DNA of 64,000 bases from positions 21,308-85,307 of the forward strand of contig CAXHJY010000684.1 in the NCBI GenBank assembly GCA_964016885.1, read 5' to 3'. The stretch comes from Eledone cirrhosa (taxonomy: Eukaryota). Below the pieces are notes generated by a model. It was not told the DNA's origin. It saw nothing but the letters and a program-made list of their open reading frames with translations, and did no database searches. The position numbers and the translations under genes were made by a program. Positions 48,484 to 48,817 of the stretch are shown here, piece after piece. The stretch's first letter is position 1. Every line of letters starts with the position of its first letter.

Positions 48484-48817
48484 AAGGAAAGTGTAATAAA
48501 TTTATACATACATGTATATAAGTGTGTGTATATATATATATATATATATATATATATATATATATATATATACACACACATATATATATATATATATATA
48601 TATATATATATATATATATATATATATATATATATATATATATATATATATATATATACATATACATATACATATATATATATATATATATATATACACT
48701 TATATACATGTATGTATAAATTTATTACACTTTCCTTTTCACAAAGACATTCCCATATTATATATATATATATATATATATATATATATATATATATAAT
48801 ATGGGAATGTGTTTGTG
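48484..48817. repeat. Double inverted repeat around two (TA)n tracts
   Basis: 48696-48737 is the reverse complement of 48484-48525; 48740-48760 is the reverse complement of 48797-48817. Confidence 0.9.

Follow-up and report, generated by a model that had tools for sequence, protein, structure and literature searches.

Inverted copies of both flanks fused inside a (TA)n tract of Eledone cirrhosa, a probable scar of two-ended snap-back repair

In the snap-back form of SD-MMEJ described in Drosophila, DNA snaps back between inverted repeats and is subsequently joined by microhomology annealing (PMC5728401). In yeast, HO breaks give rise to local fold-back inversions that contain inverted flank copies of 2 to about 150 bp; they are primed at a 10-bp inverted repeat, require Pol delta and NHEJ, and have junction microhomologies of 0–5 bp with a median of 2 (PMC11724301). 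In C. elegans, snap-back forms a minor class of Pol-theta insertions (PMC5068794), and in human cells MMEJ repairs breaks that arise at TA repeats (PMC13645644). Penelope-like elements with an endonuclease generate inverted insertions, with a target bias towards (TA)n (PMC8557442). Here and below, these five papers are cited for the parts of their text that were available.

The window, which is the whole 64-kb stretch of DNA that was analysed, lies on an unplaced 85-kb scaffold (C711, 21308–85307) of the 3.0-Gb genome assembly, which comprises 1796 contigs, and it contains no N. Between window positions 48480 and 48817, a left flank (L), a TA tract, an island, a second TA tract and a right flank (R) follow one another. 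The island is 64 nt long, and local alignment accounts for all of it by inverted copies of the two flanks, L' and R'. The preliminary description had given the structure as L-(TA)n-L'-R'-(TA)n-R, and both this order and its coordinates hold in the alignment, with L' perfect over 42 nt and R' carrying one mismatch. The features are as follows.

48480 to 48528, plus strand: left flank L, template of L' (alignment; single-copy in the genome search)
48529 to 48696, no strand: left (TA)n tract, 168 nt (alignment)
48573 to 48579, no strand: CA interruption of 7 nt, mirror of 48522–48528 (sequence)
48696 to 48741, minus strand: L', inverted copy of 48480–48525 (local alignment)
48740 to 48741, no strand: CA overlap common to L' and R', candidate microhomology joint (alignment, read contig)
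48740 to 48759, minus strand: R', inverted copy of 48798–48817 with one mismatch, at 48746 (local alignment)
48759 to 48798, no strand: right (TA)20 tract, pure, 40 nt (alignment)
48798 to 48817, plus strand: right flank R, template of R' (alignment)

The perfect part of L' (48696–48737, 42 nt) is, in local alignment, the reverse complement of 48484–48525 with 0 mismatches; at 48738 the island has a T where the mirror predicts C, and beyond this position three more nucleotides match (48739–48741 against 48482–48480). Scored with an order-6 model trained on the genome, the left arm reaches 54 bits and the right arm 21–25 bits. L' and R' each mirror the flank on their own side, and neither is a copy of the other. 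At its 3' edge, L ends in a (GT)3G run adjoining the TA tract; compared with this inner edge, the copy, which starts as TATA-CAC, is short by two CA units. The insertion extends into longer inverted repeats, with a left arm of 42–46 nt and a right arm of 20 nt. Self-complementary TA tracts adjoin both copies, and the strand is predicted to fold into hairpins in which both arms are paired.

Pure TA runs occupy 48529–48572, 48580–48658, 48672–48696 and 48759–48798. The interruptions of the left tract, a CA run at 48573–48579 and a second one at 48659–48671, are not mirrored on the other side. The CA run possibly marks an earlier or abortive fold-back, or it may be an ordinary interruption. Mirror contexts (TG-TA-CA and CA-TA-TG) were considered as proof of an abortive round at this position and rejected, because direct contexts are commoner: among 2932 TA runs, the direct contexts CA-TA-CA and TG-TA-TG occurred 15 and 14 times, against 7 and 9 for the mirror contexts.

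A search of the 3.0-Gb genome with the island, in which simple repeats and very common words are skipped, returned two matches, namely the island itself and its own left flank. When the left side was searched with 48180–48520, query positions 151–341 had no other genomic match, and on the right side the same was found for 48826–49105. An L'R' junction present elsewhere as a contiguous repeat, which the preliminary description had regarded as fatal to its reading, did not turn up in this search; the joined island is unique genome-wide and the adjoining flanks are single-copy. Further out, fragments of dispersed repeats occur at 48184–48330 and 49106–49434, each of which matches at least 39 other places in the genome at about 70–89% identity. 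An Rfam scan of the 64-kb window gave 0 matches reaching the gathering score.

Where the two copies meet, they overlap by the CA at 48740–48741. One substitution (48738) together with a 2-nt CA microhomology accounts for the joint as well as a 2-nt TT filler does and, by a rough estimate made from the sequence, better; the overlap requires this substitution to lie 2 nt upstream of it. In this reading the left flank serves as template for the T at 48739. The probability that 48739–48741 agree with the left mirror by accident is about 2% when estimated from base composition, and no other local template for the joint was found within 46000–51500. The two T residues through which the copies had first been described as joined are present, but annealing through the CA overlap is the more likely origin of the joint than ligation with added T's.

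The island resembles the products of described snap-back repair in several respects. As in Drosophila snap-back SD-MMEJ, its formation would involve same-strand inverted primer repeats, limited synthesis, unwinding and annealing through new microhomology, and the insertion joins a longer inverted repeat (PMC5728401). In the SD-MMEJ model one extended end anneals to existing sequence, whereas the island has copies from both ends; it also differs in the length of the copies (20–45 nt), in its microsatellite primer and in its occurrence in a natural genome (PMC5728401). Both the size of the copies and the 2-nt junction homology are within the range of yeast local fold-back inversions, in which, unlike the island with copies at both ends, one end synthesises and the other is captured unextended (PMC11724301). 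The human study likewise presents TA repeats as cruciform-prone break sites, with Pol-theta MMEJ and small templated duplications there; it concerns ecDNA in human cancer, and its available text contains neither two-sided inverted flank copies nor the term 'fold-back' (PMC13645644). A literature search that left most subscription papers and supplements outside its reach found no account of the two-sided layout at natural TA tracts. Judged from its sequence, the island is a putative two-ended, microsatellite-primed variant of described snap-back repair.

The frequency of mirrored flanks was determined in a sample of 1.764 Mb, consisting of 170 stretches of 10 kb at chosen round coordinates together with the window, 84 kb of it from the scaffold of the focal site. 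At a threshold of at least 18 bits, mirrored flanks were found at 22 of 2302 TA tracts, compared with a mean of 0.9 and a maximum of 2 under shuffled pairing, and with 20 of 20000 random pseudo-tracts (equivalent to 2.3 per 2302). Other microsatellites had none (0/474 CA/TG, 0/468 GA/TC and 0/520 trinucleotide tracts, 0/1462 in total). Mirrored flanks are about 10-fold enriched at TA tracts and are TA-specific. A control in which sequence was reversed without being complemented gave 18 hits at 18 bits, not far from the 22 cases at TA tracts. One minisatellite in locus L102 accounts for 17 of these 18 hits; after a G/C filter 10 hits were left at 18 bits, all from that minisatellite. Because a single minisatellite supplies nearly all of these hits, the control does not undercut the TA result. 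The G/C-filtered mirror cases at 14 bits number 22, with five in the window, both focal arms included. In only 5 of these 22 cases are the arms free of further copies elsewhere in the sample, and paired mobile-element copies may therefore underlie part of the TA enrichment. Perfect mirrors of at least 10 nt directly outside pure TA runs, with minisatellites included, were seen in 92 of 1062 cases against 20 when shuffled. The presence of a second TA tract beyond the copied arm was tried as a signature of one-sided events and discarded as uninformative (8/22, against a background of 33%, 3733/11461).

Among 1460 adjacent tract pairs, two two-sided islands were detected at 12 bits and one at 14 bits, and 20 shuffles of the pairs yielded 0 two-sided hits. 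The G/C filter in this count covers adjacent pairs only; three minisatellite rows of the first two-sided scan (L156, L174 and L073), which are A/T-only or nearly so, were set aside. The second island (L019:4830–5011, about 16137–16318 of C711) is on the same scaffold as the focal site. Its 22 nt, read from the assembly sequence, combine a left mirror of 15 nt with a right mirror of 9 nt, the two sharing the dinucleotide TA, and the island is short and of low complexity (15 and 14 bits). At a rate of 1%, two independent one-sided events predict about 0.15 two-sided pairs in 1460. The focal case was preselected, so that one unselected case stands against this expectation, and independent events are therefore still compatible with the count.

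Further mirrors were observed in the window and in the sampled loci. The mirror at 28325–28619 is one-sided and centred on TA; its arms measure about 125 nt (97%), and the arm belongs to a repeat family. In the template this mirror stops at a short TA run, and it continues into the TA tract 28626–28780. At 62163–62666, inverted arms of 217 nt with one mismatch surround (TA)21 and 28 nt of non-TA sequence. Their outer left end adjoins a short TA run, and the flanks of this run in turn mirror each other for 5 nt. A TA-centred mirror at 52282–52475 has a microsatellite that is shorter in the copy, and a repeated piece of the arm start precedes the next TA tract. At 51751–52055 an older GA/TC mirror is arranged around (TA)9, after which copies of a unit of about 10 nt follow in alternating orientation, separated by short TA runs, a pattern reminiscent of iterated fold-back. 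In L109:8040–8274, a 14-nt flank motif is present in three inverted copies between TA tracts, an arrangement that reads as iterated fold-back. On the minus strand of L106:3–9737 there is a stop-free frame of 3245 codons with several frames open, which is probably a tandem repeat.

Local inverted repeats with a spacer of at most 250 nt number 179 in 1.164 Mb, a count that covers loci L011–L120 plus the window and to which one tandem array in L071 contributes some; 20 of them have a TA run of at least 10 nt in the spacer. The density of palindromes is very high, and most are bounded by TA tracts rather than centred on them. In 87 of 113 short-spacer, non-TA-centred inverted repeats, an outer end has a TA tract no more than 80 nt away (random mean 37), and in 29 of the 113 both outer ends do (random mean 10). 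Considered by geometry only, these tracts are often flush with the repeat on one side and 60–80 nt away on the other.

We consider the island to be probably the germline scar of one double-strand break in (TA)n, followed by snap-back synthesis at both ends. The TA tract would be broken by cruciform cleavage, by fork collapse or by a TA-targeting endonuclease, and the resected 3' ends, being self-complementary in their TA sequence, would each anneal near the base of their own tract. A polymerase would then copy the flanks, about 45 nt on the left side and about 20 nt on the right, after which the new strands would be unwound, annealed through the 2-nt CA overlap, filled in and ligated. The template is taken to be in cis; reverse reading of the homologue or of a sister chromatid would give the same product. 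Since the tract interruptions are unmirrored, the left primer would have been seated within the first (TA)22 or at the base of the tract. It likely reached two units into the GT run by means of two G-T wobble pairs; such priming would account for TA instead of CA at 48693–48696, and later slippage could give the same result.

This reading is favoured because L' and R' tile the island completely with a 2-nt overlap, because the island is unique and its flanks single-copy, and because mirrored flanks are TA-specific and the L019 island also has a 2-nt overlap. It is weakened by the minor share of snap-back among the Pol-theta insertions reported in C. elegans (PMC5068794, as far as its available text goes) and by the one-ended character of the yeast events. 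The preliminary description had proposed that both ends fold back, copy, unfold and are joined; anatomy, uniqueness and TA enrichment fit this course, and only its last step changes, ligation through added T's being less likely than microhomology annealing.

It is also conceivable, though unlikely, that two events struck the same fragile tract, the first leaving a one-sided fold-back and a later break allowing the other end to fold and to join the first copy, with loss of the intervening TA. One-sided mirrors are indeed far commoner (22/2302 tracts), the CA interruption at 48573–48579 may mark an earlier round, and iterated fold-backs exist, as at L109:8040–8274. However, this course requires an extra deletion of all TA between the copies, and in both two-sided cases the copies fill the island exactly, overlapping by 2 nt. 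With one mismatch per arm there is also no hint that the copies differ in age, which is a weak argument.

Distinctly unlikely is replication template switching without a break, in which converging forks would stall and their nascent strands fold, copy and anneal, or one fork would switch serially. The sequence of its product would be identical, and the self-complementarity of TA would by itself account for the observed TA specificity. Against this, a single fork would need at least three switches, one of them onto the parental strand ahead, and two forks should seldom converge within a tract only about 200 nt long. Moreover, TA repeats are documented break sites, according to the available text of PMC13645644.

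Diagonal resolution of a TA cruciform would leave two hairpin-capped ends; these would be opened off-centre, 45 nt into one flank and 20 nt into the other, and then joined. Off-centre opening of hairpins resembles long P-nucleotide-like additions. Such a process is two-ended by nature and requires no priming, and the available text of PMC13645644 describes cruciform cleavage at TA repeats. It predicts, however, that both tracts are copied from one tract, and the tracts observed differ, the left one being interrupted and 168 nt long, the right one pure and 40 nt long. The left inner edge is moreover an imperfect mirror. Later slippage could blur these differences, and we regard this origin as very unlikely.

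Self-complementary (TA)n could also produce such a structure as a sequencing or assembly artefact, through fold-back chimeric reads or local gap filling. The scaffold is unplaced and only 85 kb long, and both two-sided cases are on it. The read evidence comes from three runs of one sample (X18, X19 and X20) that contain 66–85% of the locus words and are probably the assembly's own source. Runs X1–X17, with 5–6% of the words, were left out of the evidence, and two RAD runs of other individuals (X21 and X22) gave no coverage of the site. In X18, a read-derived contig of 69 nt matches 48708–48772 across the joint with 0 differences at a depth of 4.9, and the neighbouring contigs of the left and right flanks have depths of 4.9 and 4.1. 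X19 and X20 contain neither a joint contig nor a left-flank contig, and their right-flank depths are 2.9 and 2.0. The right flank is represented by one contig per run with no alternative letters, in contigs that drop rare variants. The joint is present in the reads at single-locus depth in one of three runs of one sample, and the runs are not independent. Recovery in a single run at low depth would suit an artefact. Because the depth of the joint equals that of the flanks, and several reads share one joint, an artefact is nevertheless unlikely. Substitutions that separate the island from both of its templates, a window free of N, and mirror arms elsewhere that span the range from perfect to clearly diverged also speak against it, and taken together we judge an artefact to be highly improbable.

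A small mobile element or repeat, or arms that are the termini of a Penelope-like insert, is scarcely credible, since the search of the 3.0 Gb, with simple repeats and very common words skipped, found no match to the island beyond itself and its own left flank, since L' and R' differ from each other and since the Rfam scan of the window yielded no family at threshold, even though TA-bounded palindromic inserts are abundant in the genome (87/113 near TA against 37 at random).

The comparison with Penelope-like elements is instructive in another way. Like their inverted insertions, the island has a TA target, facing segments between two TA tracts and no discernible target duplication; unlike them, with arms that represent element RNA and mirror each other, its arms mirror unique host DNA (PMC8557442, in its available part). 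The island as a Penelope insertion was set aside, its 64 nt being fully explained by flank copies and containing no hammerhead ribozyme or RT/endonuclease sequence, with the island unique and 0 Rfam matches in the window. By analogy, we put forward as a doubtful but conceivable extension that the island may be a cargo-free product of the same two-ended priming that builds the genome's putative head-to-head Penelope-type inserts. An element endonuclease would cut the TA tract without capture of element RNA, and both 3' ends would prime on their own flanks and join mid-way. If so, such 'empty' scars would show TA-cut ends that were both extended and then fused, and they would provide a handle on how Penelope inverted repeats form as well as a steady source of host palindromes.

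If the island is the scar of one break with snap-back synthesis at both ends, as we consider probable, it would be a natural and unusually clean record of a TA-microsatellite break in which each end was extended on the flank beside it before the two were fused; the laboratory models considered here show one extended end. The single site has no evident function. Two-sided islands could serve as an element-free control for how Penelope-like elements make inverted copies. Should the class be genome-wide, as about 1% of the sampled TA tracts have a mirrored flank, TA tracts would be a steady source of palindromes.
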